DNA of 64,000 nucleotides, taken from assembly GCA_035467535.1 (NCBI GenBank), contig DATITS010000059.1, positions 514-64,513 of the forward strand. The letters are read 5' to 3'. Below the pieces are notes generated by a model. It did no database searches. It saw only the letters and a list, made by a program, of their open reading frames with translations, and had not been told where the DNA came from. This DNA comes from Desulfobacterales bacterium. Its GTDB lineage: Bacteria > Desulfobacterota > Desulfobacteria > Desulfobacterales > SpSt-501. Positions 9,725 to 41,571 of this stretch are shown one piece after another (position 1 is the stretch's first letter; every line of letters begins with the position of its first letter). The translations under genes were made by a program, and so were the position numbers.

Positions 9725-9764
9725 GGCCCGGGGGAACGGTCCCGCAGAAAAAAAGGAGGAAGCA

Positions 9765-10751: not shown

Positions 10752-10790
10752 GCGGAAGACCCGATTCCGCTGCCATTGATGGAACTGATT

Positions 10791-10849
10791 CGCGCGGACC
10801 CCGGAAAAGGCCATGAGGAACTGCACGGGATCCGCGCGGATTGTTTTCT
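10791..10849 (+). terminator. Hairpin plus T-run between tctC and the corrinoid fusion gene (attenuator or partial terminator)
   Basis: The stems are CGCGCGGACCC (10791-10801) and GGGATCCGCGCG (10827-10838), followed by GATTGTTTTCT. The AAGGAG RBS of the next gene follows immediately. Confidence 0.5.
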
Positions 10850-10860
10850 AAGGAGATTAC

Positions 10861-12822
10861 ATGCCGCTGACCCACAAGCAGCGGATGCTTATGGCTGTGC
10901 AAGGCGACTTGCCGGATGAGCTTCCGTATGCCCCCCGCATCGATCTGTGGTACAACGCAAACCTTGCTGCCGGAACCTTGCCTGAGAGACACCGCGGCCG
11001 CACGGCGGACGAGATCGTTTTGGCCGAAGGATGGGCGCTGCACAAGGTGGTGGCGGATCACTTGCGCCAACCCCGCGCGGATGCAATGCTGCACCGAGCA
11101 TTAGGGGTGCATTTCTTGAAGGAGTACGTTGCGCACTTTATATTCACCAAGCGAGTGAAAATCGATGTGCTGCGTGAAGGCGACCGCACGCGCATCCGCT
11201 ACACCACCGCCAAGGGATCCATCAACACCAGCACCGTTTACAGCCAGGAAATGCGGCGCTCTGGCACCTCCGTCCCCTGGATTGAAGAGCATGCCGTCAA
11301 AACACCGGATGATATAGATGTGCTGGCCAGTGTGTTTGAAAATATAGACGTCGTGCCAAATTACGAGACGTTTAAGACCCACGAGACGCAAGTAGGCGAG
11401 AACGGCTTGCCGGTTACCGCCTTCACCGTAGCAGCCGGGCCTGTTCACCATATCCAGAAATACTTTTTGGGTGCGACCGAATTCTTCAATTATTACCACG
11501 ACCACCAGCCTAAACTGCTCCGCCTCGCCGAGGCACTGTCCCCCTTGTATGAAAAGGCATTGCACATCGTCGCAGAATCCCCAGCCCGCGTTATCCAATG
11601 GGGGTCCAACTTCGACGATATGCTCACATTTCCTCCGATGTTCGAGAAACATTTCCTGCCCTGGATCCGGAAAGCCAAAGAGGTGTTAAGTCCTAAAAAC
11701 ATCCGAGTCCTCTGCCATACCGACGGTGAGAACAACGGGCTGATGGACCTTCTGCATGATTCAGGGATGGACGTTGCCGAGGCGGTCTGCCCGGCGCCCA
11801 TGACCAAGGTCACCATCCAGGAGTACTATCGGCGCTGGAGCGATCGGATCACCATTTTCGGCGGAGTGCCCTCCAATCTGCTTCTGCCGCAGCTTACCCC
11901 CGATGAGCAATTTAACAGTTTCATGGATGGGCTTTTCTCCGGCATAGGCGATGGGCGCAGGTTCATCCTTGGCATAGCGGACACCACGCCGCCGGATGCC
12001 GACTTCGAGCGGCTGGTCCGTATCGGCGAGATGGCCCGGGAGAGGGGGCGCCTGCCCCTGAAGGCCGGTTCATTCAACCCGGTTGACCCCGCGGCGGTCG
12101 CCGGGGTGCTTGCAGAAAAGGAATCTGCGGTATCGGACTTGCAAGATACCCGGTTTGCACAAATACGGCGGGCGGTCCTCGAGGGCCGGGAACAGGATCT
12201 CATCGGAGAGGTCCAGGAACTCCTGTTAAAGAAAACCGCCCCCAAGGATATCATCGATCAGGGAATGGTCGCTGCTATGGAAAGCCTCAACGCGTCGTTC
12301 AAAAACGGCACTGTCTTCATACCGGAAGTGCTGGCAGCCGCTCGGGCTATGAATGCGGCCGTGCTCTTTCTGGAACCGCATCTTACTGAAAAAGAAAAAA
12401 ACAGGGGAGGCAAAATCCTGATCGGCACGGTCAAGGGTGACCTTCACGACATCGGTAAAAACATGGTTGCGACCATGCTGCGCGGCGTCGGGTTCAACGT
12501 GACCGACTTGGGGATCAACATTAGCGCCGATCTCTTCGCCAAGAAAATTGCCGAGGAACGCCCGCAGGTCCTGGGGTTGTCCGCTCTGCTCACCACCACC
12601 ATGCCGGAGATGGGCAAGGTCCTGGAAGCGCTTGATAAGGCTGGTTTGAGAAACTCGGTGAAAGTCATGGTTGGTGGAGCCCCGGTAAACGCTCGATTTG
12701 CACGAGATATCGGAGCGGATGGTTACGGCCGCGACGCAGCCGCGGCCGTTGAGGTGGCTAGGGCGCTAGTTGCTGAATCCGCATTTCTTGAGACGAAGGC
12801 CGCAGTGCCGGCCAGGGGATGA
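10861..12822 (+). CDS. Fusion protein: URO-D-like (MtaA/CmuA-superfamily) domain plus B12-binding corrinoid domain
   Basis: The 653-aa protein has a C-terminal part of about 210 aa with a B12-binding_2 helical cap and a Rossmann B12 domain carrying the D-x-H-x-x-G signature (GTVKGDLHDIGKN), plus SALLTTTMP and MVGGAPV. The N-terminal part of about 420 aa resembles uroporphyrinogen-decarboxylase-fold methyltransferases (GSNFDDMLTFPPMFEKHFLPW, VLCHTDGEN, ITIFGGVPSNLL). Confidence 0.75.
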   Translation: MPLTHKQRMLMAVQGDLPDELPYAPRIDLWYNANLAAGTLPERHRGRTADEIVLAEGWALHKVVADHLRQPRADAMLHRALGVHFLKEYVAHFIFTKRVKIDVLREGDRTRIRYTTAKGSINTSTVYSQEMRRSGTSVPWIEEHAVKTPDDIDVLASVFENIDVVPNYETFKTHETQVGENGLPVTAFTVAAGPVHHIQKYFLGATEFFNYYHDHQPKLLRLAEALSPLYEKALHIVAESPARVIQWGSNFDDMLTFPPMFEKHFLPWIRKAKEVLSPKNIRVLCHTDGENNGLMDLLHDSGMDVAEAVCPAPMTKVTIQEYYRRWSDRITIFGGVPSNLLLPQLTPDEQFNSFMDGLFSGIGDGRRFILGIADTTPPDADFERLVRIGEMARERGRLPLKAGSFNPVDPAAVAGVLAEKESAVSDLQDTRFAQIRRAVLEGREQDLIGEVQELLLKKTAPKDIIDQGMVAAMESLNASFKNGTVFIPEVLAAARAMNAAVLFLEPHLTEKEKNRGGKILIGTVKGDLHDIGKNMVATMLRGVGFNVTDLGINISADLFAKKIAEERPQVLGLSALLTTTMPEMGKVLEALDKAGLRNSVKVMVGGAPVNARFARDIGADGYGRDAAAAVEVARALVAESAFLETKAAVPARG

Positions 12823-14138
12823 AAAACGCTATGCAAATTTTATCGAATACCATCGATCGATTGGTGGGGGATGTTCCCATCCCCCGCGTCGTGAAGGTCC
12901 GGCAGAAGTTCGAGCGGCCCTTCATAGCGGATGTTGAAGCAGCGGTTTTAGACCGGCTGCACAGCTCGCGCGTTCTCGACGCTGTGCGACCGGGTATGCG
13001 CATCGCCGTCGGCGTCGGGAGCCGGGGGATCGCCAACCAGCCGCTTGTCGTAAGGCTCTTGGTGAGCCAACTCAAGGCCAAGGGGGCCGAACCGTTCATC
13101 TTCCCCGCCATGGGCAGCCACGGCGGGGCCACGGCGGAAGGGCAGCAGGACCTTCTTGCTCGCACGGGCGTCACGGAGCAGGCCATGGGAGCCCCCATCC
13201 GTTCCACCATGGACGTGGTCGACATGGGAACGGCTGAAAACGGGCTTACGGCATGGTTTGACGCGTATGCCGCCGCGGCGGACGGCATCGTGCTGGTGAA
13301 CCGGATCAAACCCCATGTCTCCTTCAGGGGCCAATACGAGAGCGGCCTGATGAAAATGATCGCCATCGGGCTCGGCAAGCAGAAAGGCGCAGAGGCCAGC
13401 CACCAGCTGGGCATGGAGCGTATGCTCGAAAACATCGTGGCGGTTGGTCGTAAGGCACTTGCGACCGGGAAAATCCTTTTCGGGATCGCCTTGGTCGAGA
13501 ACGCTTACCATGAGACCTGTCGCATCGAGGCCGTCCCCGCCCATCGCATCGAGGAGGAGGAAGTCGCGCTCCAGGCGGAAGCCAAACGACTGGAACCGAG
13601 GATCCTCTTCGACCGCTTGGATGTCCTCATCATCGATGAAATCGGCAAGAACATCTCGGGGACCGGCTTTGACAACAACGTCGTGGGCCGTTACCACCTG
13701 CCGCACATGAAATCCGAAGGCCCCTTCATCACGCGCATCTGCGTTCTGGACATCACCGATGCCTCGCACGGCAACGGCAACGGCCTGGGCATCGTCGACT
13801 TCACCACCGAGCGGGCCTTCCGGAAATTCAGCTTCGAGGAGACCTACCCCAACGCTCTTACCTCCACCGTGCTGGCGAGCGTCAAAATCCCCATGGTGCT
13901 AAAAACCGACCGACTGGCCATCCAGGCGGCAATCAAAACCTGCAATATTGCGGACTTCCGGAACGTGAGGTTGGGGCGCATCAAGAACACCCTCGAGGCC
14001 CACCTGCTGGAGATCTCGGAAAACCTTCTTGATGGGGCCCGGGCAAACCCCGGCATCGATATCCTTTCCGAACCTTACGAACTGGCTTTCAACGCGGAAG
14101 GAAGCCTCCCGGGAGGCGCTCCGGTTTCTCAGCCCTGA
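12819..14138 (+). CDS. LarA_N/DUF2088 (lactate-racemase-domain) family protein, copy 1
   Basis: The 439-aa protein has the blocks FPAMGSHGGAT, DGIVLVNRIKPHVSFRGQYESGLMKMI, ENAYHET and LDVLIIDEIGKNISGTGFD. Its ATG overlaps the upstream stop (ATGA). A paralogue lies at 40303..41571. The family assignment is from memory of the LarA N-terminal architecture and is not exact. Confidence 0.65.
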   Translation: MKNAMQILSNTIDRLVGDVPIPRVVKVRQKFERPFIADVEAAVLDRLHSSRVLDAVRPGMRIAVGVGSRGIANQPLVVRLLVSQLKAKGAEPFIFPAMGSHGGATAEGQQDLLARTGVTEQAMGAPIRSTMDVVDMGTAENGLTAWFDAYAAAADGIVLVNRIKPHVSFRGQYESGLMKMIAIGLGKQKGAEASHQLGMERMLENIVAVGRKALATGKILFGIALVENAYHETCRIEAVPAHRIEEEEVALQAEAKRLEPRILFDRLDVLIIDEIGKNISGTGFDNNVVGRYHLPHMKSEGPFITRICVLDITDASHGNGNGLGIVDFTTERAFRKFSFEETYPNALTSTVLASVKIPMVLKTDRLAIQAAIKTCNIADFRNVRLGRIKNTLEAHLLEISENLLDGARANPGIDILSEPYELAFNAEGSLPGGAPVSQP

Positions 14139-21682: not shown

Positions 21683-22210
21683 CTATAGCCCCTTCTTTTC
21701 AAAAAAGACAAAGGCCAGGATATAGACCACCGCCAGGACTGCGATGACCGGCCAGGGGCCCACGCCCAAAACGCCGGGAAGCGTGATCGGGCCGAGACTG
21801 CCCATTTGCAGAAAACCCTTCTCCAGATACGGGTAGGCCTCGGCGAAAAGCGCCGCGCCGGCCAGCATGCCGAGGATGGCAAAGACCGCGTGCACGCGGC
21901 CCTCGGCCACCGCACCGACGGAGGTGCCGGGGCAAAACCCCATGATGGCCCAGCCGCCGCCGAACAGAATGCCGCCCACGATGTTCGCGCCGAGCACGGT
22001 AGCCTTGGGGCTGAGCTTGACGAGCCCGAACCCGGCCAGCAGGTTGATGCCGACCATGCCCACTATGATGGCGGAGAGCATGAACTTCATGATGGTCATG
22101 TCCTTCAGCAGCATGGCGCCGACCTGTTTTTCAAAACGCAGCACGCGGCCCTGCTGGAGCAAAGCACCGAAGGCCACCCCCGTGATCAGGCCCAGCCATT
22201 GCTCGCTCAT
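21683..22210 (-). CDS. YeeE/YedE family membrane protein (sulfur/selenium-compound transport-like), second half-gene
   Basis: The 175-aa product reads MSEQWLGLITGVAFGALLQQGR...GGGWAIMGFCPGTS. Its ATG overlaps the upstream stop (ATGA). The first 211 aa of the 386-aa track ORF are an out-of-frame overlap artefact. Confidence 0.75.
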   Translation of the reverse strand: MSEQWLGLITGVAFGALLQQGRVLRFEKQVGAMLLKDMTIMKFMLSAIIVGMVGINLLAGFGLVKLSPKATVLGANIVGGILFGGGWAIMGFCPGTSVGAVAEGRVHAVFAILGMLAGAALFAEAYPYLEKGFLQMGSLGPITLPGVLGVGPWPVIAVLAVVYILAFVFFEKKGL

Positions 22211-22746
22211 CGCACACCTCCCGCGCCCCGGTAGACCAGGGCAGCCACCAGCACGCCCGCACCGAAGAAGCAGGCGAGCGCAACGAACCCGCTGACCGAC
22301 AGCTGCATCAACCCGCTCAGCCCGTGCCCGCTCGGGCACCCATCCGCCATGCGGGCACCGAACATGGCCACCGCACCCCCCAGGAAGGCGCCTACTGCAC
22401 GGACCTTCGCGCTGTTTCCGAAACGCTCGCGCCAGACCGGCGGAACGGTCTCCACCTTGAAGCTTCCGTCCGCCAGCGCCGCGGCCAGCGCCCCGATGAA
22501 GACCCCGACGACCAGCATGAACTGCCAGTCGATCTTGACCTTCTCCTTGGCGAAGTAGGCGTTGTTCTTGACATGCTCCGGGGCGAGGCGCTCCTCGATG
22601 AACCCGGCCGCGCGCACGAACGTCGTGGACGCACCCAGGTACTGCGCCTTGCCCAGGACCTTCGTGCTGGCGAAAACGGACACCGTGGCCAGCACGCCAA
22701 CCAGCGCCCCGGCAATGTAAGGCCTCCAGCTGAAACGATTCTGCAT
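22207..22746 (-). CDS. YeeE/YedE family membrane protein, first half-gene
   Basis: MQNRFSWRPYIAGALVGVLA...GARMADGCPSGHGLSG. The start at 22746 follows AAGGAG. Confidence 0.75.
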   Translation of the reverse strand: MQNRFSWRPYIAGALVGVLATVSVFASTKVLGKAQYLGASTTFVRAAGFIEERLAPEHVKNNAYFAKEKVKIDWQFMLVVGVFIGALAAALADGSFKVETVPPVWRERFGNSAKVRAVGAFLGGAVAMFGARMADGCPSGHGLSGLMQLSVSGFVALACFFGAGVLVAALVYRGAGGVR

Positions 22747-23148
22747 GCTTGCTCCTTTGCGGTTGGGCTGCATGGGCCGGCGGAAAGATGCGGAGGGCGT
22801 CCGCGCCGGCACGACGGCAGCCTGCGGGGTGTGATGCGTCCAACTATAGTACGATTCAGCGGAACGCTCAAGCGGATCGGCGATCTCTCACACAAAAGCA
22901 ATAACTATTCATAGATGGACGGCTCTCTTTTTGTCAATTATAAAAAAGGCGCCGCATCTCTTTTGCCTGCGGAGCAGCCCGTCGCAACTTTTTAACGTTT
23001 ACGAAGCAGCCGGGGAAATCGTGAGCCTGAACGTTCTCGTAATTCGAAAAATCGCCCCGCGCCTTGAATTTCACCTTTGCGTGCCCATTTTGAGCAGCAA
23101 ATATGTGAGACCCCATAGCTGCGTTTCATCAGTGGAAAGAATTTCAAA

Positions 23149-25392: not shown

Positions 25393-25457
25393 TCAACAAT
25401 GCCCCTCGGATGATATTGCTGAATGGCAACCAGCTCGCACGAAAGGAGAAAACACCC

Positions 25458-26000
25458 TTGACGTGGACAACATGGATTGAAATCGAACCAGACGACACAA
25501 CCAATGCCACGGTGCAGCAGCTCTACAAGAGCACGCAAGACCGCGCGACGTGCCGCCCTCCCGACACCGTGCGCCTGACCAGTCTGACCCCCAGGGTGGC
25601 CGGCCTTATTCACGACCTCAATCGCGCTATTCACCGCGATGCAAAAGGGCTAACGGCCCGTGAACAAGAGATAGCAGCGCTCATCGTATCTTCTTATAAC
25701 GGGTGAGGACACTGAACAGCCAGCCATCTGGCGGCCCTCGGTCGAGCGGCCCGGAATCAGCAATTGGCAGAACAGGTAAAAAACGACTTTACCAAGGCGG
25801 ACTTGAATCCACGGGAACGGAGAATCGCCGACTTCGCGGTCAAAGTAACCCGTTCTCCCAATGCTTGCAGCCCTGCGGATGTTCAGGCACTGAGAGAGGT
25901 GGGATTAGGCGATAAAGACATTTTGAGCCTTGTGCAGATCATAGCCTACTACAATATGAGCAATCGGCTTTTTGAGTCCCTCAGTACCGTAGATCCTTGA
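25458..26000 (+). CDS. CMD/AhpD-fold peroxidase-related protein, predicted double selenoprotein (U-x-x-U; TGA at 25704-25706 and 25713-25715)
   Basis: ORFs 25410..25706 and 25764..26000 share a frame with only two TGAs between them. Read-through gives LIVSSYNG-U-GH-U-TASHLAAL...RERRIADFAVKVT...IIAYYNMSNRLFESL, so both TGAs sit on the C-x-x-C positions. The start is probably the TTG at 25458, after AAGGAGAAAACACCC; the ATG at 25410 is the alternative. Confidence 0.6.
25719..25751 (+). promoter_or_regulatory. Candidate SECIS region (two adjacent GC-rich stem-loops)
   Basis: One stem-loop is GCCAG-CCAT-CTGGC (25719-25732). The other is GGCC-CTCG-GT-CGAG-C-GGCC (25733-25751). Confidence 0.35.
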
Positions 26001-26100
26001 AAGCAAAATTGCCGCCATCAGGCAGCACGATATCGGGTTTGCGGTAGAGGACTGGTCATCCTTTATGTTTCTGCAGGTTTCCAGAACCTCCAAGCAGTCC

Positions 26101-26166
26101 CTGCATAGGAATCTGCATAGTTTCACAACAATATATAATTGAAATTTTATATTTCATAAATGAAAT
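26101..26166. promoter_or_regulatory. Candidate upstream activator sites in an AT-rich region
   Basis: A direct repeat of CTGCATAG lies at 26101-26108 and 26113-26120. A palindrome ATTTCAT-AA-ATGAAAT lies at 26151-26166. Both are 75-140 nt upstream of the sigma-54 promoter. Confidence 0.4.
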
Positions 26167-26239
26167 TTAGAACTCATGTTCAAATTTAATCTAAAATAAA
26201 AAATGTATAAAAACATGGTTTTAAATGGTTATGCCGTAC

Positions 26240-26255
26240 TGGCACCCATATTGCT
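26240..26255 (+). promoter_or_regulatory. Sigma-54 (-24/-12) promoter
   Basis: TGGCAC-CCATA-TTGCT is an exact match to TGGCAC-N5-TTGC. It lies about 70 nt upstream of the ATG at 26327, and a sigma-54 activator is encoded nearby (28815..30761). Confidence 0.8.
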
Positions 26256-26326
26256 TAGATTCCTATTCTCAGCGGCTTTTGCCTAGCCGTACGATTTGGT
26301 CAGCCAATCGACAATAGAAAGGATGG

Positions 26327-27514
26327 ATGAAAATGGATTTCAAACTCAACAGTGAACAGACACGGATGATTGCGGCGTTAGACGAACTCGGTCGCAAAGA
26401 ATTTGCGCCGAAAGCGGCGCGATGGGACGAAAATCATGAATACCCCTGGGAAAACCTCCACATGCTCCGAGAACTCGGTTTTCTCGGGATGACGATTCCC
26501 GAGGCATATGGCGGCCAGGGGCGCCCCCTCATCGATGCCATATTGGCCATTGAAACGGCAGCCAAGTATTGCGGCGTGACCGCCCGCATACTGGTTGAAA
26601 CCAACATGGGGGCACTTGGATGCGTAATGGCATATGGTACGGAAGCTCAACGGAAGCTGGTGGCGCATCGCATCATCCACGAAGGGGATAAACCGGCTAT
26701 CGGCATGACCGAACCGGAAGCCGGAACCGCCTTGACAGACCTTCAGGCCACTGCTGAAAAGAAGGGTGAAAACTATGTGGTCAACGGGACGAAGCATTGG
26801 ATTACCGGAGGGGGCATTTCTGTAACCAATCTGATTTTTGTACGATTTGTCGAGGACGGCAAAGACCTCGGAATCGGCGGGATTCTTGTGGACAAAGGAA
26901 CACCCGGGTTCAGCTTCGGAACCGTTGAAAAGGCGATGGGGCTGAGAGGCATACCGGAGGCAGAGCTCATCTTTAAAAATTGCACGGTCTCTCCGGAAAA
27001 CGTGGTCGTTAAGGGCGAGGGAAACGAGGGCTTCAAGAAACTCATGTACGGATACAACGGTCAGAGGGTGGGGGCCAGCGCCGTTGCAATGGGAATCGCC
27101 CAGGGTGCGCATGAGCTCGCCATCGATTGGATGAAACGCCGGAAGGCATTCGGCAAAACGCTATCCGAATTCCAGGGCCTCCAGTGGATGATGGCGGATG
27201 CTGAAATCAAGCTGAACGCTGCCCGCCTGCTCATCTACCGCGCAGCATGCAATGCCCGGGACCTACCGAACAATGTCAAGCTGCCGCAAATGGATGAAGC
27301 CTCAATGGCCAAGGCCTACACCGGGCATGTGGCACTGGAAGTGGTCAGCGAAAGCCTCCAGATGTTCGGCGCCTATGGCTATTCGCAATCGCTGCCGCTG
27401 GAGCGCATGTTCCGCGACGTGCGCATGTTCCAGATCGGCGGCGGGACAACGCAGGCGCAGATCAATATGGTGGCACGGTCCATTTTCAGCAAAAAGTTCA
27501 ACTACCGGAATTAG
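26327..27514 (+). CDS. Acyl-CoA dehydrogenase-fold flavoprotein lacking both canonical catalytic glutamates (3-sulfinopropionyl-CoA-desulfinase-like?)
   Basis: The 395-aa protein shows the ACAD fold (GMTEPEAGTA, HWITGGG, FQGLQWMMAD). The Y-E-G-T site reads QIGGGTTQAQ and the helix-G alternative site reads YNGQRVGAS. Confidence 0.8.
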   Translation: MKMDFKLNSEQTRMIAALDELGRKEFAPKAARWDENHEYPWENLHMLRELGFLGMTIPEAYGGQGRPLIDAILAIETAAKYCGVTARILVETNMGALGCVMAYGTEAQRKLVAHRIIHEGDKPAIGMTEPEAGTALTDLQATAEKKGENYVVNGTKHWITGGGISVTNLIFVRFVEDGKDLGIGGILVDKGTPGFSFGTVEKAMGLRGIPEAELIFKNCTVSPENVVVKGEGNEGFKKLMYGYNGQRVGASAVAMGIAQGAHELAIDWMKRRKAFGKTLSEFQGLQWMMADAEIKLNAARLLIYRAACNARDLPNNVKLPQMDEASMAKAYTGHVALEVVSESLQMFGAYGYSQSLPLERMFRDVRMFQIGGGTTQAQINMVARSIFSKKFNYRN

Positions 27515-27537
27515 ATGGCCCGATGAAAGGGATCGCG

Positions 27538-28734
27538 ATGAATCAGAAGCTTCCGTTACAAGGCATGAAAGTACTTGATTTCACCCGTGTCCTTGCGGGG
27601 CCCTTTGCTACCATGATCCTCGGAGATATGGGGGCTGAGGTGATCAAGGTCGAGCCGCCTCAAGGGGATGAGAGCAGGACGTGGCCGCCAAAGCTAGCCC
27701 GCGGCGAAAGCGGATACTATATGGCTCTCAACCGCAACAAGCAGTCCATCACTCTCAACCTAAAACACCCGCGCGCGCGCGAAATCGCGGTCCAACTAGC
27801 TGAAAAGGCCGATGTGGTAATTGAAAACTTTACTCCGGGGGTCGCCAAAAAGCTGGGAATCGATTATGACACCATCGCGGCAAAAAACCCGGCCGTCATT
27901 TATTGCGCGGTCTCCGGATTTGGCCAAACCGGCCCCTATCGGGACAAGAAGGCTTACGACCCCATTATTCAAGGGATGACCGGCCTCATGTCCATCACCG
28001 GGGAGCGTACCCGCTCGCCGGTTAAGGTGGGGATACCGATCACAGACCTGGTCGCTGCCATTCAATCGGTGAACGCGATCATGGCGGCCTACGTTCACAG
28101 GATGCAGACCGGTGAAGGGCAGTTTATCGACGTCGCTCTGTTCGACAGCACGCTGAGCCTTCTCACCATCATGGCCATGGATTATTTTGCGACCGGAAAG
28201 CCGCCCGAGCGCTGGGGAATGGACCACATTCATCGCGTCCCGGCCAGGGCCTTCCAGACGCGCGACGGTCGTTATGTGCAGGTCGCCGCCACCAGCGACA
28301 CCATGTACCCGGACTTCTGCCGCGTGCTGGACCTGGAGCATCTCATTGCCGATCCGAGGTTCCGAACGAACGCCGACCGGGTCAGAAACCGCGACATCAT
28401 CATGCCGATTCTCGAGGCCAGAATGCTGGAAAAAGACAGCACGGAGTGGCTGAGCCTGTTCGAGGCCGCGGGTATTCCCTGCGGCCCGATCCTCAATATG
28501 GAGGAAGTGTTTCAAGACCCCCACGTGGCCGCCCGGCAAATGCTGTTTTCGATGGAACACCCGACGGAAGGCAGCATCCCGCAGATAGGGTTTCCCTATA
28601 AATTCTCCCGCACACCCCTTCAGGCCCGGATATGCCCGCCTCGACTGGGTGCGGACACGTCCGCGGTTCTCTCGGATTGGTTGGAAATGCAGGCGGCCGA
28701 CATCGAAGGGTTGCGCCGGGAGGGTGCGATATGA
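27538..28734 (+). CDS. Class III (CaiB/BaiF family) CoA-transferase
   Basis: MNQKLPLQGMKVLDFTRVLAGPFATMILGDMGAEVIKVEPP...GDESR...DLVAAIQ. The start could instead be 27523. Confidence 0.85.
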   Translation: MNQKLPLQGMKVLDFTRVLAGPFATMILGDMGAEVIKVEPPQGDESRTWPPKLARGESGYYMALNRNKQSITLNLKHPRAREIAVQLAEKADVVIENFTPGVAKKLGIDYDTIAAKNPAVIYCAVSGFGQTGPYRDKKAYDPIIQGMTGLMSITGERTRSPVKVGIPITDLVAAIQSVNAIMAAYVHRMQTGEGQFIDVALFDSTLSLLTIMAMDYFATGKPPERWGMDHIHRVPARAFQTRDGRYVQVAATSDTMYPDFCRVLDLEHLIADPRFRTNADRVRNRDIIMPILEARMLEKDSTEWLSLFEAAGIPCGPILNMEEVFQDPHVAARQMLFSMEHPTEGSIPQIGFPYKFSRTPLQARICPPRLGADTSAVLSDWLEMQAADIEGLRREGAI

Positions 28735-28814
28735 ACCGGAGCAGAAAAACTCGCTCGCGCTTTGCACCAAGCGGACCGAAAAAATCAAACGCCTGGCGTT
28801 GACGGTTTTCACCA

Positions 28815-30761
28815 TCAATTTTTCTGGGTATCGTGGGTTAGCTTTCGCCAGAGTGTGGGCAGGCTGATTCCGAGGGCCTCGGCGGCCAGCTTTCGATTGT
28901 AACGACACTCTTTCAGGGTTTGCGTGATGAGGTTTTTTTCAAACGCCTCCAGTCGTTGCTTTAGCGTCGGCTGGCCGTCAGGTGTTGAGACCTTTCGGTC
29001 GTCGGGATTTTCCGCTTCACTCGATTTCTTCCCCCTCTCACCCTCCCAGCGGATTTCGTCCATTATCTGATCGAAAAGAGACTCGTCGCAGGCGCCCCCC
29101 TCGTTCAGGAGCATGTAACTGTCCAGCACCGATAGCAACTCGCGAATGTTCCCGGGCCAATAATAGGATTGAAGTAATTCCCGCATCCTGGCGGAAAGGC
29201 AGTCGAGATTGCGCCCCTGATGGCAGAGTGCCGCCTCCGCGATCACCAGGATGTCTTCGGAGCGCTCCCGGAGAGGTGGGATCCGCAACCGCAGCAATGC
29301 AAGTCGAAAGTAAAGATCCGCTCTGAATTTGCCCGCCTGGATTTCCTGACGCAGATCCCGGTGGGAAGAGGCGATAACCCGAACGTCCACGGGCAGGATC
29401 CGGTCGCCGCCGACCCGCATCACCTCCCTGGTTTCGAGCACTCGCAGCAGCCGGACTTGCATGGCTGCTGAAATGTCGGCGATCTCATCCAAAAAAATGG
29501 TCCCCTGGTTTGCCAGTTCGAAGAGACCGATCTTTCCGCCTTTTTTCGCCCCGGTAAATGCACCCTCTTCGTAGCCGAACAGTTCGGTTTCCAGAAGATT
29601 TTCAGGAATCGCCGAGCAGTTGAAGGCCACGAAGGGTTTTTCTCGACGGCCGCTGAAATTGTGGATCGTTTGCGCAAACAGTTCTTTTCCCGTCCCCGTT
29701 TCCCCCTGGATAAGGACCGTCGCATTGGCCATAGCGTATTTCCCGGTCTTGTGGAGCAGTTCCTTTATTTTTGCGCTTTCCCCTTTGATATCCTGCTCCG
29801 TGTAGCGCGCAACGAAGCCTCTCAAGTAAAGACGTTCTCGCAGCTTGCGGTCGATATTGTGGATTGCGTGAGCTTCACGGAAAAGCGCCACGGCGCCCTT
29901 CGGTCGACCATCGATCGTGATCGGTAGAGAGCTCACCACAAGATCCTTGTCGCTTATCCTTCGGATCTCCTCGATTTGGGCCTTGCCCCCCGAAAGCACA
30001 TCGATCAGGCCGAACTCTCTGGAAACTCGCGACAAGGATTGCCCCATGATGCTTTTCAGGTCGGTCTTGAGGATCTTTTCGGCGGCCGGGTTGAAAAAAT
30101 TCACTCTGCCGAAGTTATCAATCCCCAACAAGCCGTCGCCGATGATGTGAAGCGTGGTCTTGAGCTGCTCGGCATATTCGACCTCCCGGCGGCGCGCAGC
30201 TGCGATTGCGCGCGCCTGGGTCAACGCCTCCTTGATCAGTCTGATATTGGGTTCAATGATGACCACTGCTCCCTGACCGCTTGGGACAAGGCCGCGGCTG
30301 ACGCCTCCACCCACAATCACACGAAAGTCTCCGGCAAGGGCGGCATGAATGCCTTCCTCAAGCTCGATGTTGGTTCGATATACGACTTGCCAAATCGTCA
30401 GGTGAAGCAGTTTTTCAAGAAGTTCCATCCCGTCTCGTGGAGCGGCAAAACTCGTAATGGCTACCCGGTTGGAAATCTCGCGCGCCTTCAGCAGCGCGTT
30501 CAACACTTCAAGCGTGGTTGTCGGAATGTTGACCACCTGCTGGCCCACATTCTGCGCAATCGTCGCGCCAGTCCCGCCGTGTCCTAAAATGACCTCGCAG
30601 CCCTCCTTCAACAGCCGTTGCGCCGTCGGCAACGCTTTATCCAAGTCCACCAGTTCCGTTGCCAGATGTTCGCTTTCCGGCTCGATGCATTTGCGGACCG
30701 CCTCAATGATTTCCATGGAATGAGTGACCAATGCGAATTGGTAGGGTCGGTGTTGGCTCAT
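28815..30761 (-). CDS. Sigma-54-dependent transcriptional activator, PrpR-type (PrpR_N + PAS + AAA+ + Fis HTH)
   Basis: A PrpR_N-like N-terminus (ILGHGGTGATIAQ..VVNIPTTTLEVLNAL) is followed by Walker A GETGTGKE, the GAFTGA motif (EEGAFTGAKKGG) and a C-terminal HTH (AAEALGISLPTLWRKL). Confidence 0.9.
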   Translation of the reverse strand: MSQHRPYQFALVTHSMEIIEAVRKCIEPESEHLATELVDLDKALPTAQRLLKEGCEVILGHGGTGATIAQNVGQQVVNIPTTTLEVLNALLKAREISNRVAITSFAAPRDGMELLEKLLHLTIWQVVYRTNIELEEGIHAALAGDFRVIVGGGVSRGLVPSGQGAVVIIEPNIRLIKEALTQARAIAAARRREVEYAEQLKTTLHIIGDGLLGIDNFGRVNFFNPAAEKILKTDLKSIMGQSLSRVSREFGLIDVLSGGKAQIEEIRRISDKDLVVSSLPITIDGRPKGAVALFREAHAIHNIDRKLRERLYLRGFVARYTEQDIKGESAKIKELLHKTGKYAMANATVLIQGETGTGKELFAQTIHNFSGRREKPFVAFNCSAIPENLLETELFGYEEGAFTGAKKGGKIGLFELANQGTIFLDEIADISAAMQVRLLRVLETREVMRVGGDRILPVDVRVIASSHRDLRQEIQAGKFRADLYFRLALLRLRIPPLRERSEDILVIAEAALCHQGRNLDCLSARMRELLQSYYWPGNIRELLSVLDSYMLLNEGGACDESLFDQIMDEIRWEGERGKKSSEAENPDDRKVSTPDGQPTLKQRLEAFEKNLITQTLKECRYNRKLAAEALGISLPTLWRKLTHDTQKN

Positions 30762-30875
30762 CAGTCCATCCGTTCAGAATTTTGCTTTATCAAGCTGGAT
30801 TCGTTTGAATTACATACAAACAGCTGTACCGATATCAAGCGTAACGCGGCACCGTTTCATCTCGCACTGAAAGGT

Positions 30876-32114
30876 TTATGCTCTTCCGCGCGTCCGGCGA
30901 TGACGCCGTTTGAGATGCATCAGCACCGAGGCAACCATGCACCCGAGTCCGAGGCTGCCGAAGGCAATACCCCAGGCGGCGGGGTTGGCCTTGCCGCCGG
31001 CCATGTCGAGCACCACACCAAAAAAGAGCGGCGCGACGAACCCCGCCCCAAAGCCTAAGAAAGAATACACCGCCATGGCCGCTCCGCGCTGATTGAGTGG
31101 TGTTGCGGCGACGAAGCCGGCGGTCAACGCCGCGGAATCGGCCATTACGGTTAAATAGTAGAGCATAACGATCAAGAGCATTAGCCAACAGGGCCACGTC
31201 GCGCTGAATCCCACAACCCATGCCAGGGTCCCGGAGACCGCCATCACCACTTTGATATAACTCGCCCGGCCAAAGCGCCCGGCAAACTCGTTGCCCAGGA
31301 TGCTGGCAGCCAATCCCAGCAGGCCGACGAGGGCCGCCGCCTCCGTGGCGCTGAACAAAGGCTCGGATGGCCGTTGAAGACCGTAGGCAAAGATGATGAA
31401 TGCCACCATCCACGAGCGCAGCCCGAAGAGTTCCCAGCAGTGCACAGCGTAACCGAGGATGTAGCCCAGTACGGAGCGTTCGCGCAAGACAGCATAAACC
31501 CCAGGAACCAATTTGGGTTTTGCCTCTCCGGCAAGGGGCGTAAGCGTCTCCAGACCAAAGCCGACCAGCAGAGCGGCGGTGAGCGGGCCAACCGCCAGCA
31601 GGCCAAACACCCAACGCCAGCCCATCGAGCCGACAAACCAACCTGAAAGCAATAGGGATAGGCTGCTGCCGATAGCGAAGGTCGCGGTGTAGAACGCGAT
31701 GTAGCGGCTCTGGCGCGGCCCGGCCACACGGTCGGTCAACGCCTTCAGCCCGGGCATGTAGGTGCCGGCCAGTCCCGCTCCGGCGAGGGCTTGGAGCAGG
31801 GCGGCGGTAACGACACCGTCGGCGAAAACCGCGAACCCGACCGCACTGATCCCGGACAGCATGCAGGAGAGCATGTAAACCCGGCGGGCATCGAAGCGAT
31901 CGGTCAGGCTGGAGAGGGTGGGCACGGCGACCATGTAGCCGCCGAAAAACGCCCCGCCGATGAACCCGGCCTCGGAGTTGCTGATGCCCCAGGTGTCCCG
32001 CAGCAGGGCCAGGAACGCCGGGTAGACCGCGAAGCCCGTCATGCTGAGCACTTCGGCCAGGCACATCAGGCCAACGACGCGGAGGGCACCGGAGTTATTA
32101 GAACTGGGGGTCAT
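30876..32114 (-). CDS. MFS transporter
   Basis: This is a 12-TM-type protein with SSLTDRFDARRVY in the loop 2-3 motif. The start MTPSSNN (32114) is preferred over 32174. Confidence 0.8.
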   Translation of the reverse strand: MTPSSNNSGALRVVGLMCLAEVLSMTGFAVYPAFLALLRDTWGISNSEAGFIGGAFFGGYMVAVPTLSSLTDRFDARRVYMLSCMLSGISAVGFAVFADGVVTAALLQALAGAGLAGTYMPGLKALTDRVAGPRQSRYIAFYTATFAIGSSLSLLLSGWFVGSMGWRWVFGLLAVGPLTAALLVGFGLETLTPLAGEAKPKLVPGVYAVLRERSVLGYILGYAVHCWELFGLRSWMVAFIIFAYGLQRPSEPLFSATEAAALVGLLGLAASILGNEFAGRFGRASYIKVVMAVSGTLAWVVGFSATWPCWLMLLIVMLYYLTVMADSAALTAGFVAATPLNQRGAAMAVYSFLGFGAGFVAPLFFGVVLDMAGGKANPAAWGIAFGSLGLGCMVASVLMHLKRRHRRTRGRA

Positions 32115-37153: not shown

Positions 37154-38686
37154 TTAGTTTTTTCTTTCTGCGCCAGCGGTTCGGCACAGGTTTCCGGTCC
37201 GGATGATGCGCGGTTTGATCCAGGCGATCAGGATGGGACCCAGCAGCACCAGGACCCCGACAAGCAGGATCGTGCCCGCAATGGGCCGATTCAGAAAGAC
37301 CGTCAGGTCACCCCGGCTGATCATCATCGCCTCCCGGAAGCTTCGCTCCATCATGGGGCCGAGGACCAGGGCCAACACCAGAGGCGCCAGGTCGTACTTG
37401 AGGCGCCGCAGGAGATAGCCCAAAAGACCGAAGCCGGTCATGAGCCAAATGTCGAGGATCGAGTTGTTGACGGAGTAAACGCCCACCAGGCACAGCAGCA
37501 TGACAATCGGCATGAGAATGTAGAGAGGGGTCCGGATGATGCTCGCAAAAACACCCACCAGGGGGAGATTGAAGACGAGAAGCATGAAGTTGCCGATATA
37601 CATGCTGGCAATGACGCCCCAGAAGAGATCGGGTTTTTCGCTCATCAGCAAGGGGCCGGGGTTGATCCCGTGGATCAAAAGGACCGCCATCACCACCGCC
37701 ATGGCGGGAGTGAAGGGAATCCCCAGCGCCATCAGCGGGATATAAGCGGCTCCGACCGAAGCATTGTTGGCCGCCTCGGGCCCTGCAACTCCTTCGATGG
37801 CGCCCTTGCCGAACTCTCCGTGCTTGTCGAGCTTTTTCTCTACGGAATAGGCAACCATGGTTGAGATGACCGGGGAGGGACCGGGGACAAGACCGACGAA
37901 AAAGCCGATAAAAGAACCCCGGATCATGGGCCAAAACGACCGCTTCCACTCCACGAGCGTCGGCCACAGCTCCCGGAAGCCAACCCGCCGCAGTTGCATG
38001 TTCCCGGTCTGTTCTTCTGCCGTGACAAGCACTTCGGAAATACCGAAAAGCCCCATGGCGACCGGGAGAAAATCGATGCCCTGCGCCAGAAGCTGCTGCT
38101 TGAAGGTGTAGCGCATGTACCCGGCCACGGTCTCCATGCCGACCGTTCCGAGAGCCAGCCCGAGGGCGATCATCATCAGCGATCTGACAAGATTACCCCC
38201 CGTCAAGCGCGACATGATCACAAGCCCGACAAGGGCGACGGCAAAATACTCTGACGGCCCGAACTTGAGGGCTGCCGTTGCCAGTGTGGGAGCCAGAAAG
38301 CTCAGACCGATCAGGCTGATCGTTCCGGCGATGAACGATCCGATGGCGGCGACGGCAAGGGCGGCTCCGGCGCGGCCCCGGCGAGCCATCTGGTAGCCTT
38401 CGATCACCGTGATGACGGAGGCGGCCTCCCCGGGGATGTTGAGCAGGATGGAGGTGGTCGAGCCCCCGTACATTGCGCCGAAGTAGATGCCGGCAAAAAG
38501 GATCATGCCCGCCGTTGGGTCGAAACCGTAGGTCAGAGACAGGAGCAGCGCCATCGTCCCCAGGGGGCCCAGACCCGGCAGGATGCCGATGATCGTTCCA
38601 ATCACCGCCCCCAGGAATCCGAATAAAAGATTGGTGGGGGTCAATGCGACCGAAAAACCGTTTAGAAGTCCTCCAAAGACATCCAT
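37154..38686 (-). CDS. tctA: TTT large permease TctA, copy 2
   Basis: The 510-aa protein shares the conserved blocks of 8207..9724 (GILPGLGPLGTMALLL, YGGSTTSILLNIPGE, GVAGPEAANNA). Confidence 0.9.
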   Translation of the reverse strand: MDVFGGLLNGFSVALTPTNLLFGFLGAVIGTIIGILPGLGPLGTMALLLSLTYGFDPTAGMILFAGIYFGAMYGGSTTSILLNIPGEAASVITVIEGYQMARRGRAGAALAVAAIGSFIAGTISLIGLSFLAPTLATAALKFGPSEYFAVALVGLVIMSRLTGGNLVRSLMMIALGLALGTVGMETVAGYMRYTFKQQLLAQGIDFLPVAMGLFGISEVLVTAEEQTGNMQLRRVGFRELWPTLVEWKRSFWPMIRGSFIGFFVGLVPGPSPVISTMVAYSVEKKLDKHGEFGKGAIEGVAGPEAANNASVGAAYIPLMALGIPFTPAMAVVMAVLLIHGINPGPLLMSEKPDLFWGVIASMYIGNFMLLVFNLPLVGVFASIIRTPLYILMPIVMLLCLVGVYSVNNSILDIWLMTGFGLLGYLLRRLKYDLAPLVLALVLGPMMERSFREAMMISRGDLTVFLNRPIAGTILLVGVLVLLGPILIAWIKPRIIRTGNLCRTAGAERKN

Positions 38687-38698
38687 GACGCTTTGCTC

Positions 38699-39187
38699 CT
38701 ATCCCAGAACCTCTTCCAGAATCCCGAGAGGCAGGGGGACTTTCAACCAGATGACGAAGGCGACATAGGAAATAGCGGTAATAATCGTTGCGGTGACCAG
38801 GGTGATAACCCAATGGCGCGAGCCGAAGATGCGGGTCGAAATCAGCAGGAAGATACAGATGGTGACGGGAAAACCGAGCGGGGTCAGCGCGAGGATGTAA
38901 CCGATCATGAGCGCCATCAGCTGAACGGTTTTGCCGAAATTGCCTTCAGCGGATGCAGCCTCACCCGAGGAGGGGGCACCCGGTTGACGGTCAACGGCTT
39001 TACACTTCAGGATTTCCTGAACAAGGCATCCCAGCGCCGTGGCGATCAGAAAAACGCCCACCACCAAGGGAAAGAAGCCGGGGCCGGGGTAGGCCATAGT
39101 GCCCCGGGGCATATACAAGGCCATGATCTCATAGACCACCCCGACCGCGAGCATCACACCCGGAAATATGGCTGAGGTCAGCTTCAT
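38699..39187 (-). CDS. tctB: TTT small subunit TctB, copy 2
   Basis: This is a 162-aa, 4-TM protein placed between tctC and tctA. Confidence 0.75.
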   Translation of the reverse strand: MKLTSAIFPGVMLAVGVVYEIMALYMPRGTMAYPGPGFFPLVVGVFLIATALGCLVQEILKCKAVDRQPGAPSSGEAASAEGNFGKTVQLMALMIGYILALTPLGFPVTICIFLLISTRIFGSRHWVITLVTATIITAISYVAFVIWLKVPLPLGILEEVLG

Positions 39188-39247
39188 TCGAACACCTCAG
39201 GCGGGAGAGACCCACGGCCTCTCCCGCCCCCCGCATTCAGAGGAAGA

Positions 39248-40243
39248 TCATTTCGCAGCGCCCGCTGCTTTACCGTACTTATTCCAAAGGGGTTGGTAGA
39301 TCGAATCCAGTTTCTTGATAAAAGCGGCGTATTCTTCCGGCCCTTTGTAATCAGCCGGAAAGGCCGTCTTTTGCACATTCGCTTTAAATTCCTCCGAATC
39401 CATTACCTGTTTTACTGCGGCGGCGAAAAGGTCGATGATGGGCTTGGGGGTGTTCTTGGGCATGGCAAACCCCCTCGCCGAGCCGCTGGTAACGTCGTAC
39501 CCCAGTTCTTTAAAGGTGGGAACGTCGGGGAGGAACGGACTACGCTTATCCGTCATGATCGCCAGCGCCCGGAGTGAGCCCGCTTTGACTTGAGGGTAAA
39601 CAATTCCCAGGTTGTTGGCGGAGGCGTCGACGTGGCCGGCCAGCGCGGCCTGCCAGGAAGGACCGTCTCCACTGAATGGGACGATGTTGAATTTGGCTTG
39701 CGATGCCGCTTCGAACATGTAGGTGGCAAACCAGTCATCCCCGGGTGCTGAGGCGACGCCTACGCCGACCGTTCCAGGCTTATCCGTGGCCGCCTTGAGG
39801 ATATCCGCCAACGTCATATAGGGGCTTTCCGCCCGGACCACTAGAATGCCAGGATCTGTAACGACATTGGCGACGAAGGCAAGATCTGACGTCTTGTAGC
39901 TGGTTTCCCGAACATACGTGTTGATGGGAATCATGGGGGTGCAGGAGATGAAGACCGTGTAGCCGTCGGGCTTGGACATGGCCAACTCGGTCGCGGCGAT
40001 GTCGCTGCCGGCGCCCGGCTTGTAGACCGGTACCAAGGTGGCATTGAGCGCCTTTTCAAGTTGTGGCCTTATCATGGAAAACATGACGTCACTGCCTCCT
40101 CCGGGAGAAAAGCCGATCAAGACATTGATCGGCTTCCTGGGATAGTTGGCATCGGCCGATTTCCCTTGAGCAAAAACGTTCGTCGCAAGAACCATAATTA
40201 AAAATGCGATAACGCTGAATCCGGATTTCGTGCACATGTTCAT
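39248..40243 (-). CDS. tctC: TTT substrate-binding protein TctC, copy 2
   Basis: A signal peptide is followed by YPRKPINVLIGFSPGGGSDV and VPFSGDGPSWQA. The start MNMCTKS (40243) follows AGGAGGAGAG. Confidence 0.85.
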   Translation of the reverse strand: MNMCTKSGFSVIAFLIMVLATNVFAQGKSADANYPRKPINVLIGFSPGGGSDVMFSMIRPQLEKALNATLVPVYKPGAGSDIAATELAMSKPDGYTVFISCTPMIPINTYVRETSYKTSDLAFVANVVTDPGILVVRAESPYMTLADILKAATDKPGTVGVGVASAPGDDWFATYMFEAASQAKFNIVPFSGDGPSWQAALAGHVDASANNLGIVYPQVKAGSLRALAIMTDKRSPFLPDVPTFKELGYDVTSGSARGFAMPKNTPKPIIDLFAAAVKQVMDSEEFKANVQKTAFPADYKGPEEYAAFIKKLDSIYQPLWNKYGKAAGAAK

Positions 40244-40302
40244 CTCTCCTCCTGTTGTCACGTTATCATTGTTCAGGGCCTAACGCCCGTTGGCCGCGCA
40301 GA

Positions 40303-41571
40303 TTAGAAAAGATTACCCTGGTCATTGAAAGCCAAGACGTGCGGCTCGCCCGGCGTTTCAAGGTGCCTGCTCGCCCTCACCTCCGGCAGCAGGTTCTCCG
40401 ACACGGCGATTTCATCCAGGGCAACGGTGTTCTTGATCCGCGCCAGCCGGACTTTTGATTTGTCCAGTATGTTGCAGGTCTTGATCGCCGCCTGGATGGC
40501 GTGGCGATCGTTTTTCAAAACCATCGGGATCTTCACGCTCATCGGAACAGTGGACGTGAGCGAGTTGGGATAGGTGTTCTCGAAGTCGAACTTGCCGAAC
40601 GCCCGCCGCGTGGTGAAATCCAGGATCCCCAGGCCGTTGGCATTGCCGTGCGACCGGTCGGTGATGTCGAGGCCTGCGATCCTGGTGATCGCAGGCCCGC
40701 CGCTGACAAACGGGGTATGGTAACGCCCGACCACGTTGGTATCGAAGCCCGTGCCGCTGATGTCCTTTCCGATCTCGTCTATGATCAGGACATCGAGCTG
40801 CTCGAAGTATAATTTGGGGTACAGGCGCCAGGCCTCTTCCAGCAGCACCGGTTCGCGCACCGGGATCTCCTCCCGGGCAAGCACTTCCAGCTGTGCGGTT
40901 TCGTGGTAAGCGTTTTCGAGAATGCCCACGCCGCAGATGATGTTCGACTTTGCCAGGGTCACTCGACCGATGGACAGGATGTTTTCCGCCATCTTGCCAA
41001 ACCCCAGCTCATGGCAGATATCGGCGCCCTTCTGTTTGCCCATGCCGATGACGATCATCTTCATCAGCCCGCTTTCACATTTTCCGCGAAAGGCCACGTG
41101 GGGCTTGATGCGGTTGACGACCACGATCCCGTCGGCCTCATAGGCGTATTTGTCCAGGTGGGCCGGAAACCCGTTCTCGGAAGTCCCGATCTCCACGGTT
41201 TCCATGGTCGCACGGATGGGGGCTCCGACAACCTCCTCGGTGATGCCCATACCGATGAGCATGTCGCGCTGGCCTTCAGGTGTGGCGCCGCCGTGGCTGC
41301 CCATGGCCGGAAACAAAAAGGGTTCGCCCCCGGCCCGCTTGATCTCTGATACCAGGCTTTTCAGCATCTGCGGCAATGCGGTGATTCCGCGGCTCCCGGC
41401 GGTGATGCCGATCTTGTGACCCGGCTTCACTTTCGCAAGGACGCCGCTGTCTCGAACTTTCCGGATCAGTTCGCTCTCGACATCGAGGACCCGCGGCCGA
41501 TCAAAGGCCTGCAGGACTTTAATCATTCTGGGAATCGGTATGCCATCCAAAAGAGTGTCGATCGTGCTCAT
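40303..41571 (-). CDS. LarA_N/DUF2088 family protein, copy 2
   Basis: The 422-aa protein is colinear with 12819..14138 and shares long identical blocks (FPAMGSHGGAT, VNRIKPHV, ESGLMKMI, ENAYHET, LDVLIIDEIGK, ISGTGFD, NVVGRYH, AIQAAIKTCNI). Confidence 0.65.
   Translation of the reverse strand: MSTIDTLLDGIPIPRMIKVLQAFDRPRVLDVESELIRKVRDSGVLAKVKPGHKIGITAGSRGITALPQMLKSLVSEIKRAGGEPFLFPAMGSHGGATPEGQRDMLIGMGITEEVVGAPIRATMETVEIGTSENGFPAHLDKYAYEADGIVVVNRIKPHVAFRGKCESGLMKMIVIGMGKQKGADICHELGFGKMAENILSIGRVTLAKSNIICGVGILENAYHETAQLEVLAREEIPVREPVLLEEAWRLYPKLYFEQLDVLIIDEIGKDISGTGFDTNVVGRYHTPFVSGGPAITRIAGLDITDRSHGNANGLGILDFTTRRAFGKFDFENTYPNSLTSTVPMSVKIPMVLKNDRHAIQAAIKTCNILDKSKVRLARIKNTVALDEIAVSENLLPEVRASRHLETPGEPHVLAFNDQGNLF

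Follow-up and report, generated by a model that had tools for sequence, protein, structure and literature searches.

A base-less acyl-CoA dehydrogenase-fold protein and its CoA-transferase partner from a Desulfobacterales bacterium: a candidate desulfinase-type pair under predicted sigma-54 control

Introduction

What reaction might be catalysed by a flavoprotein of the acyl-CoA dehydrogenase (ACAD) fold in which both positions that can hold the catalytic base are occupied by glycine or glutamine? The question is raised by a gene at 26333–27514 (plus strand) of a 64 kb stretch of DNA from a Desulfobacterales bacterium (the window), which is followed by a gene for a class III CoA-transferase. 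An earlier note on this DNA had compared the flavoprotein with the 3-sulfinopropionyl-CoA desulfinase of Advenella mimigardefordensis. Our analysis places it in the clade that carries the desulfinase signature residues, in a sister subfamily of the characterised enzymes, and we put the probability that the pair serves a sulfinate-cleaving, sulfite-releasing pathway of the 3-sulfinopropionate (3SP) type at roughly 55%. The enzyme family and the act–acd type of gene pair are already known; the subfamily, its anaerobic hosts, the predicted sigma-54 control with an upstream palindrome and the interchangeable thioester-forming partners are new, as far as the sequences indicate.

The 3SP-CoA desulfinases assayed to date all come, to our knowledge, from aerobic Betaproteobacteria studied for polythioester precursors, and a search of the literature found nothing relevant on this desulfinase in sulfate reducers or anaerobes. 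Should the 3SP reading be correct, rare C–S-cleaving non-redox flavoenzyme chemistry would be extended to anoxic sediments and soils, and there would be a concrete path, open to testing, by which organic sulfinates yield sulfite for respiration.

Identity and signature residues of the ACAD-fold protein

The ACAD-fold protein has 393 residues in the form used by the database entries (start at 26333) and 395 when read from an alternative start at 26327; Arg87 and Glu91 are numbered here in the longer form, the arginine being residue 85 of the shorter one. Pfam recognises the N-terminal, middle and C-terminal ACAD domains. The best NCBIfam model is NF042439 (3-sulfinopropanoyl-CoA desulfinase; 484.6 bits), which leads the second, an acryloyl-CoA reductase model (309 bits), by 175 bits. 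The best match among PDB sequences in HMMER is the Advenella desulfinase (PDB codes 5af7 and 5ahs) with an E value of 2e-97, the next match having 1e-75, and the BLASTP identity to AcdDPN7 is 42%. An AF2 model built from a mixed-subfamily alignment (pLDDT 83.5, pTM 0.87) gave the same two entries as top matches in Foldseek (E value 2e-32, TM 0.88), with ordinary ACADs following from 3e-25; a model from 21 near-identical sequences was discarded (pLDDT 50). The likeness to the Advenella desulfinase drawn in the earlier note is borne out by sequence, family model and fold alike, all of which name this enzyme as the closest solved and characterised relative.

The residues of the presumed active site agree with this placement. 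Arg87, which had been singled out from the sequence, aligns without gaps to Arg84 of 5af7 in the HMMER alignment. The glutamine of YNGQR corresponds to Gln246 (YNAQR in AcdDPN7), the position of the catalytic Glu in the isovaleryl-CoA dehydrogenase (IVD) type, and the middle glycine of IGGGT corresponds to Gly366 (IAGGT in AcdDPN7), the position of the Glu in the medium-chain acyl-CoA dehydrogenase (MCAD) type; the YEGT Glu of the butyryl-CoA dehydrogenases 5ol2 and 4l1f likewise aligns to the glycine. The absence of a carboxylate at both base sites, on which the comparison had been founded, therefore stands. In the 2015 paper on the desulfinase structure Arg84 was reportedly found to be essential (R84K), and Arg84, Gln246 and Gly366 are said there to be the positions that set the desulfinase apart. 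According to passages of PMC8360864 and PMC9293079, the desulfinase lacks the catalytic Glu and catalyses no redox reaction. With Gly or Gln at both base positions, the window protein would be unable to dehydrogenate.

A fourth position belongs to the same pattern. All signature-bearing sequences have an acidic residue four places after the arginine (motif R-x-x-V-[DE]), and Glu91 of the window protein takes the place of Asp88 of the desulfinase at this conserved acidic position. Alignment to helix E of MCAD would put Glu91 beside Arg87, deep in the pocket. The pocket lining differs from that of AcdDPN7 by A245G, A365G, T363Q and T86L.

The ACAD fold also houses flavin monooxygenases of the SfnB/DszC type, which would act on a free organosulfur compound, and the protein does match the SfnB (86 bits) and DszC (48 bits) models of NCBIfam. 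These scores lie far under the respective cut-offs and under the desulfinase score of 485 bits, so that the check for monooxygenase-type closest relatives came out in favour of the desulfinase. Nor does the setting suit an oxygenase: no flavin reductase gene was identified beside the operon in the Pfam annotation, the CoA-transferase is tightly coupled to the ACAD gene, and the annotated parts of the window carry the marks of an anaerobe (ferredoxin-dependent oxidoreductases, corrinoid proteins and an HpaB/AbfD-like protein). We consider a monooxygenase very improbable.

Subfamily and distribution

An exhaustive search of 1.84 billion representatives returned few 50%-identity clusters near the query before the ordinary ACADs start. 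In a neighbour-joining tree of 63 aligned sequences (200 bootstraps), those that contain C-x3-x-R-x2-V-[DE], YN-x-QR and F-x-I-[GA]-GGT form one clade with 96% support, and this clade contains two subfamilies, each supported at 100%. One comprises the window protein, the other delta-type sequences, a group from betaproteobacterial metagenome-assembled genomes (MAGs; 67–69% identity) and P0241; the other comprises the sequences from Advenella, Variovorax, Burkholderia and Delftia and P0244. The nearest of the signature-less sequences shown carry Glu at the Gln246 position. The phylogenetic comparison with the characterised desulfinase thus has two sides, the window protein lying inside the signature clade and outside the Advenella/Variovorax clade, and we regard it as a member of a sister subfamily and not as an equivalog.

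Many metagenome contigs carry homologues with 73–87% identity. So do MAGs that bear the names Desulfobacterales, Desulfobacteraceae, Desulfosarcina, Desulfobacula, Desulfarculaceae, Syntrophobacterales, Desulfobaccales and Desulfuromonadales, with some homologues also in bins of Acidobacteriota and Chloroflexota. The NCBI names shown for these relatives are the generic 'acyl-CoA dehydrogenase family protein', and JGI labels some of them desulfinase; should the function prove to be no other than the known one, the present assignment would be a useful correction of the generic names.

The CoA-transferase partner

The transferase gene (27523–28734, plus strand; alternative start 27538) begins 8 nt 3' of the ACAD stop codon, and this short spacing makes it probable that the two genes are co-transcribed. 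The product spans the whole CaiB/BaiF family profile (PF02515; residues 12–379 against profile positions 1–366 of 366, E value 4e-134), and its best PDB match is human SUGCT (PDB code 9br6). Its identity to the acd-adjacent transferase of Variovorax is 41%, and in this respect the pair in the window mirrors the known act–acd module. The aspartate of its GIPITD motif aligns to that of GVGIAD in the Variovorax enzyme, which we take to be the catalytic Asp of class III enzymes. The ranking of NCBIfam models is the same for the window, Variovorax and Advenella transferases, with NF052585 (succinate–glutarate CoA-transferase) as the best; its cut-off of 750 bits is reached neither by the window protein (359.9 bits) nor by the other two (about 510 bits). 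The partner thus falls in the same SUGCT-like branch as the acd-adjacent transferases, sharing their domain, Asp and model ranking at a score of 360 versus 510 bits, in keeping with the proposal of the earlier note that a CoA-transferase feeds a desulfinase.

acdA and act are consecutive open reading frames in Variovorax, and Act is a succinyl-CoA-dependent transferase that activates 3SP (PMC6370202); a passage of the same paper, citing its reference 16, credits SucCD with 3SP activation in Advenella. Both the Variovorax and the Advenella genomes have a CoA_transf_3 gene directly 5' of acd. Downstream of acd, Advenella has mdo (CDO_I), a CMD-family gene, TctC genes and TauE; Variovorax has TctC genes there and a TauE gene about 6 kb upstream. 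The characterised Acd/AcdA proteins (EC 3.13.1.4; PDB codes 5af7 and 5ahs; A. mimigardefordensis and Variovorax paradoxus) share with the window protein the fold, the Arg84/+4 acid/Gln246/Gly366 pattern, the clade and the neighbouring transferase. The differences lie in the surroundings. The gene order is acd then transferase in the window and transferase then acd in the known clusters; the window has no mdo (CDO_I) or TauE nearby, and TctC is not adjacent, TctABC being encoded elsewhere in the window; a sigma-54-type activator stands in place of the LysR neighbour of the known clusters; and the hosts are Desulfobacterota-type anaerobes instead of aerobic Betaproteobacteria.

The same two families are paired in another known operon, that of CaiA (crotonobetainyl-CoA reductase) and the class III transferase CaiB of the carnitine pathway, and so the pair in the window might be an ordinary acyl-CoA dehydrogenase or reductase with its transferase, using a base that alignment fails to recognise. 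Both proteins have CaiA-like or CaiB-like NCBIfam matches, the YEG Glu is also absent in some true ACADs (PMC8360864), and the conserved Glu91 sits on a helix of the substrate pocket. However, the CaiA model gives 155 bits (cut-off 540) and the CaiB model 132 bits (cut-off 413), and Pfam annotation of the ~20 kb around the operon showed no caiC, caiD or fixABCX-like genes. Glu91, the counterpart of Asp88 in the desulfinase, would be a neighbour of the arginine; the protein groups within the signature clade, apart from the ACADs that carry the Glu; and the Gly/Gln pair at the base positions is that of the desulfinase, which the passages cited above describe as non-redox. An ordinary dehydrogenase or reductase is improbable on this evidence.

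Thioester-forming partners in related loci

The neighbourhoods of relatives (related loci, numbered L) were compared for 52 delta-type loci in which the ACAD-fold gene is flanked by 1.5 kb or more on either side. A partner that forms a thioester or belongs to a thioester pathway stands beside the ACAD gene in 49 of them: a class III CoA-transferase in 35, a three-subunit 2-oxoacid:ferredoxin oxidoreductase in six, a ScpC/YgfH-type succinate CoA-transferase in three, SucCD and/or an aminotransferase with a glutamate racemase in three, and a PrpD-like, CitE-like or other CoA-transferase set in two; three loci have none of these partners. The enzymes that stand in for the class III transferase all form succinyl-CoA or near analogues of it. 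A census of Pfam families over 133 neighbours showed no strong enrichment other than for the families named here, and the molybdopterin oxidoreductases among the neighbours are heterogeneous. The pattern suggests a conserved logic in which a thioester is made and then handed to the base-less flavoprotein, and it offers a direct handle on the true substrate.

The arrangements are varied. In L011 the order is regulator, sigma-54 promoter, ACAD, aminotransferase and KorABC; in L014 and L080 it is SucC, SucD, aminotransferase, glutamate racemase and ACAD; in L103 (6316–12789) and L105 it is a DASS anion symporter, the ACAD, a ScpC/YgfH-type transferase and a TfrB/HdrD-like protein; and in L106 the ACAD is followed by a ScpC/YgfH-type transferase. 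Seven loci (L031, L034, L039, L118, L121, L125 and L128; Burkholderiales or unclassified betaproteobacterial MAGs and metagenome contigs), which belong to the sister group at 67–69% identity, have a pyridoxal phosphate (PLP) enzyme of the Cys/Met-metabolism family 71–104 nt 5' of the ACAD gene, and this suggests a connection to C4 sulfur amino acids.

As the sulfinate analogue of succinate, 3SP would suit these partners, and PMC6370202 credits both SucCD and Act with its activation. Three routes to 3SP-CoA would be compatible with them: CoA transfer, ligation, or transamination followed by oxidative decarboxylation of homocysteine sulfinate. A second explanation retains the base-less Acd-type fold and changes the substrate, which would be succinyl-CoA or an analogue other than 3SP-CoA, such as 3-sulfopropionyl-, 3-mercaptopropionyl- or sulfinoacetyl-CoA or a thioester derived from a C4 sulfur amino acid of the homocysteine sulfinate type; in that case the reaction, too, would differ in part or altogether. 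It draws on the relatives' operons with four other succinyl-CoA-type thioester systems (L011; L014 and L080; L103 and L105; L106), on the Cys/Met PLP enzyme close upstream in the seven sister-group loci, on the abundance of the subfamily in anoxic metagenomes and on the four pocket substitutions relative to AcdDPN7. On the other side, all of these partners would suit 3SP just as well, given the activities credited to SucCD and Act, and the Arg/acid/Gln/Gly signature is identical to that of the characterised enzyme. From general chemistry we infer a preference for a sulfinate, since a base-less flavoenzyme has no evident reaction to carry out on succinyl-CoA, whereas C–S cleavage of 3SP-CoA is a known activity of enzymes with this signature. 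We consider a substrate other than 3SP-CoA possible, if rather unlikely.

Side observations on the partner genes concern several operons in which the transferase is replaced (L011:4299–11787, L010:6194–16386, L019:5000–14120, L014:2684–11182, L077, L101 and L102), the replacing genes coding for the oxidoreductase, a class I aminotransferase, SucCD, glutamate racemase and an Frd/AprA-like flavoprotein. In L010 two RACo-type corrinoid activators are encoded directly 5'. In L004 (1573–7944) and in L009/L136 the ACAD gene has a PrpD/MmgE-like gene on one side and genes for GntR, a CitE-like lyase and a distant class III CoA-transferase on the other; L009 and L136, two records of one contig, also have an HpsG-like glycyl-radical enzyme 2.2 kb upstream (663 bits, below the cut-off).

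Predicted control of the operon

An exact match to the sigma-54 (−24/−12) promoter consensus, TGGCAC-N5-TTGC (TGGCACCCATATTGC), is present at 26240–26254 on the plus strand, 93 nt 5' of the ACAD start and within an AT-rich intergenic stretch, as the earlier note had recorded. It is the single exact match in the window, where 0.24 would be expected by chance; at least one exact match occurred in 22 of 100 shuffles, and motifs with one mismatch are not enriched (five found, 5.9 expected). Since these values are near chance, the motif by itself is weak evidence. The promoter call is supported by its position and by conservation: among 44 related loci, a −24/−12 element (score of at least 9/11) lies 5' of the orthologue in 12, against an expectation of 0.03 per locus. 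A consensus scan found no sigma-70-like site on the plus strand of the ACAD upstream spacer.

A palindrome, ATTTCAT-AA-ATGAAAT (ATTTCATAAATGAAAT; 26151–26166, plus strand), is centred about 83 nt 5' of the −24 GG. Palindrome-like copies (at least 10 of 12 specified positions) are present 5' of the orthologue in nine of 44 loci (0.04 expected per locus), and a regulator gene is close by in the window and in L008, L021, L025, L028, L043, L046 and L055 among the palindrome loci. The palindrome is a good candidate for the upstream activator sequence of a bacterial enhancer-binding protein of the PrpR_N type. The second repeat reported in this region, two direct copies of CTGCATAG (26101–26108 and 26113–26120), exists in the sequence; it was rejected as a regulatory element and is probably due to chance, because the 99%-identical relative L055 does not retain it. 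Of the upstream repeats pointed out at the outset, then, only the palindrome stands as a putative functional element.

The promoter call is also supported by a suitable activator gene just past the end of the operon and convergent to it, on the minus strand at 28815–30761. The 648-residue protein contains PrpR_N, PAS, AAA+ (PF00158, E value 1.5e-66, with GAFTGA in the translation) and HTH_8 (E value 1.5e-12) domains, and a homologue is encoded within 3.5 kb of the ACAD gene in 22 of the 52 well-flanked loci. It shares PrpR_N, the GAFTGA-bearing AAA+ domain, HTH_8 and the −24/−12 promoter with PrpR (TIGR02329), from which it differs by the extra PAS domain and by the lack of adjacent prpBCDE. 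The score against TIGR02329 is 375 bits (cut-off 499) and no prp genes were seen near the operon in the Pfam annotation of the surrounding ~20 kb, and so the activator is not a PrpR orthologue. The idea that the PrpR_N domain suits a propionyl-CoA-forming route is no more than suggestive, the score being below the PrpR cut-off. The exact consensus and its conservation at orthologous loci lead us to predict sigma-54 control of the ACAD/transferase operon.

Proposed pathway and its weighing

In the pathway that we propose, the PrpR_N/PAS activator would bind the palindrome and, on receiving a small-molecule signal, open the sigma-54 promoter at 26240. The CoA-transferase would convert a short acid that bears an anionic C3 substituent, most likely 3SP, into its CoA thioester, with either succinyl-CoA or the pathway product propionyl-CoA as CoA donor. 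In the flavoprotein, Arg87 would hold the anionic group, with Glu91 one helical turn away, and hydrolytic C–S cleavage would yield propionyl-CoA and sulfite. In a Desulfobacterota-type host the sulfite could pass to dissimilatory sulfite reductase (Dsr) and the propionyl-CoA could be oxidised or excreted. Propionyl-CoA might also re-prime the transferase, giving a two-enzyme cycle with the net reaction 3SP + H2O → propionate + sulfite. That the host respires sulfite is a putative trait, suggested by relatives named Desulfobacterales and similar taxa.

The concept is shared with the organosulfonate respiration of Desulfovibrionaceae, in which taurine, isethionate and 2,3-dihydroxypropane-1-sulfonate (DHPS) are cleaved via Xsc, IslAB and HpsG to deliver cytoplasmic sulfite as an electron acceptor. 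The enzymes of that system are of the glycyl-radical and thiamine diphosphate kinds and the substrates are sulfonates, not sulfinates; no organosulfonate enzyme of the Xsc, IslAB or HpsG kind is encoded in the window.

Several points weigh against the 3SP reading. The NF042439 score is below the equivalog cut-off of 600 bits because the protein belongs to a sister subfamily, and its identity to the characterised desulfinases is only 42%. With very high abundance and about 80% conservation over many MAG lineages, the subfamily exceeds what would be expected for a niche substrate. Homologues of TauE and of CDO (Mdo) were not found beside the delta-type genes by tblastn, unlike the aerobic clusters. 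The alternative partners (KorABC with an aminotransferase, SucCD with the racemase, ScpC with DASS) would also be expected for genuine succinyl-CoA or glutamate metabolism, which the whole partner pattern fits equally well. The known 3SP route needs O2, which leaves an anaerobe with no evident supply of the sulfinate, and dsr genes were not seen in the annotated parts of the window.

More tentatively, the Desulfobacterota subfamily ('Acd2') might be central to an anaerobic pathway of wide occurrence, and not a niche xenobiotic enzyme; five interchangeable succinyl-CoA-like thioester systems would then feed the base-less flavoenzyme. The outcome could be 'sulfinate respiration', natural sulfinates such as 3-sulfinopropionate and homocysteine sulfinate delivering sulfite to Dsr, or it could be a hitherto unknown non-redox conversion of a succinyl-CoA analogue. 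We consider this wider proposal possible, if rather unlikely.

Adjacent genes and the wider window

The regulator gene is convergent to the ACAD/transferase operon, as is the gene for a transporter of the major facilitator superfamily (MFS) on its 5' side and in the same direction (30876–32114, minus strand; 412 residues, PF07690). The 80 nt gap between the transferase and regulator genes contains a terminator-like hairpin with a T-run 3' of the regulator gene (28788–28800, minus strand), weakly indicated by a consensus scan. The gene set described earlier (ACAD fold, CaiB/BaiF transferase, PrpR_N–PAS–AAA+ activator and an MFS transporter on the other strand) was recovered in full from the open reading frames and Pfam. 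The transporter has weak NCBIfam similarity to the aromatic acid/H+ and galactonate MFS subfamilies, its gene is retained near the ACAD gene in the closest relatives only (L055, L029 and L062), and it is perhaps the importer of the organic-anion substrate, which on the 3SP reading would be 3SP.

Upstream of the operon, an AhpD/CMD-like open reading frame (25410–26000, plus strand) matches TIGR01926 at 122 bits when U is replaced by C. In-frame TGA codons at 25704–25706 and 25713–25715 coincide with both cysteine positions of the CxxC motif (NG-U-GH-U-TASH). The double TGA and the protein sequence downstream of it are conserved in L133, L062, L083 and L003 (70–95% identity), in all of which the gene lies within about 5 kb of the ACAD-fold gene, and the product is probably a UxxU protein with two selenocysteines. 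A 2026 review knows AhpD-like selenoproteins only as CxxU, with one selenocysteine (PMC13188914). The Advenella acd cluster has a CMD-family gene too. The AhpD-like gene is absent from L055 (window ~25393–26060 versus L055:9680–10000), where the spacer from EamA to the ACAD gene is 321 bp compared with 940 bp in the window, indicating a recent indel with a boundary near 26060.

Two short Sulf_transp genes of the YeeE/YedE type lie at ~21684–22747 (minus strand), and after them come genes whose products are a D-serine-dehydratase-like protein, an aldo-keto reductase and a 2-hydroxyacid dehydrogenase (assigned by Pfam in the near-identical L055); this group is not conserved beside the ACAD gene in other loci. 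Elsewhere in the window there are two TctABC tripartite transporter sets (8207–14138 and ~37154–41571), each beside a LarA-like (Lar_N) gene, a fused URO-D/B12-binding protein at 10861–12822 and, at ~53.7–57.8 kb, a second 2-oxoacid:ferredoxin oxidoreductase with an HpaB/AbfD-like gene. Together these genes mark a versatile anaerobic degrader of organic acids.

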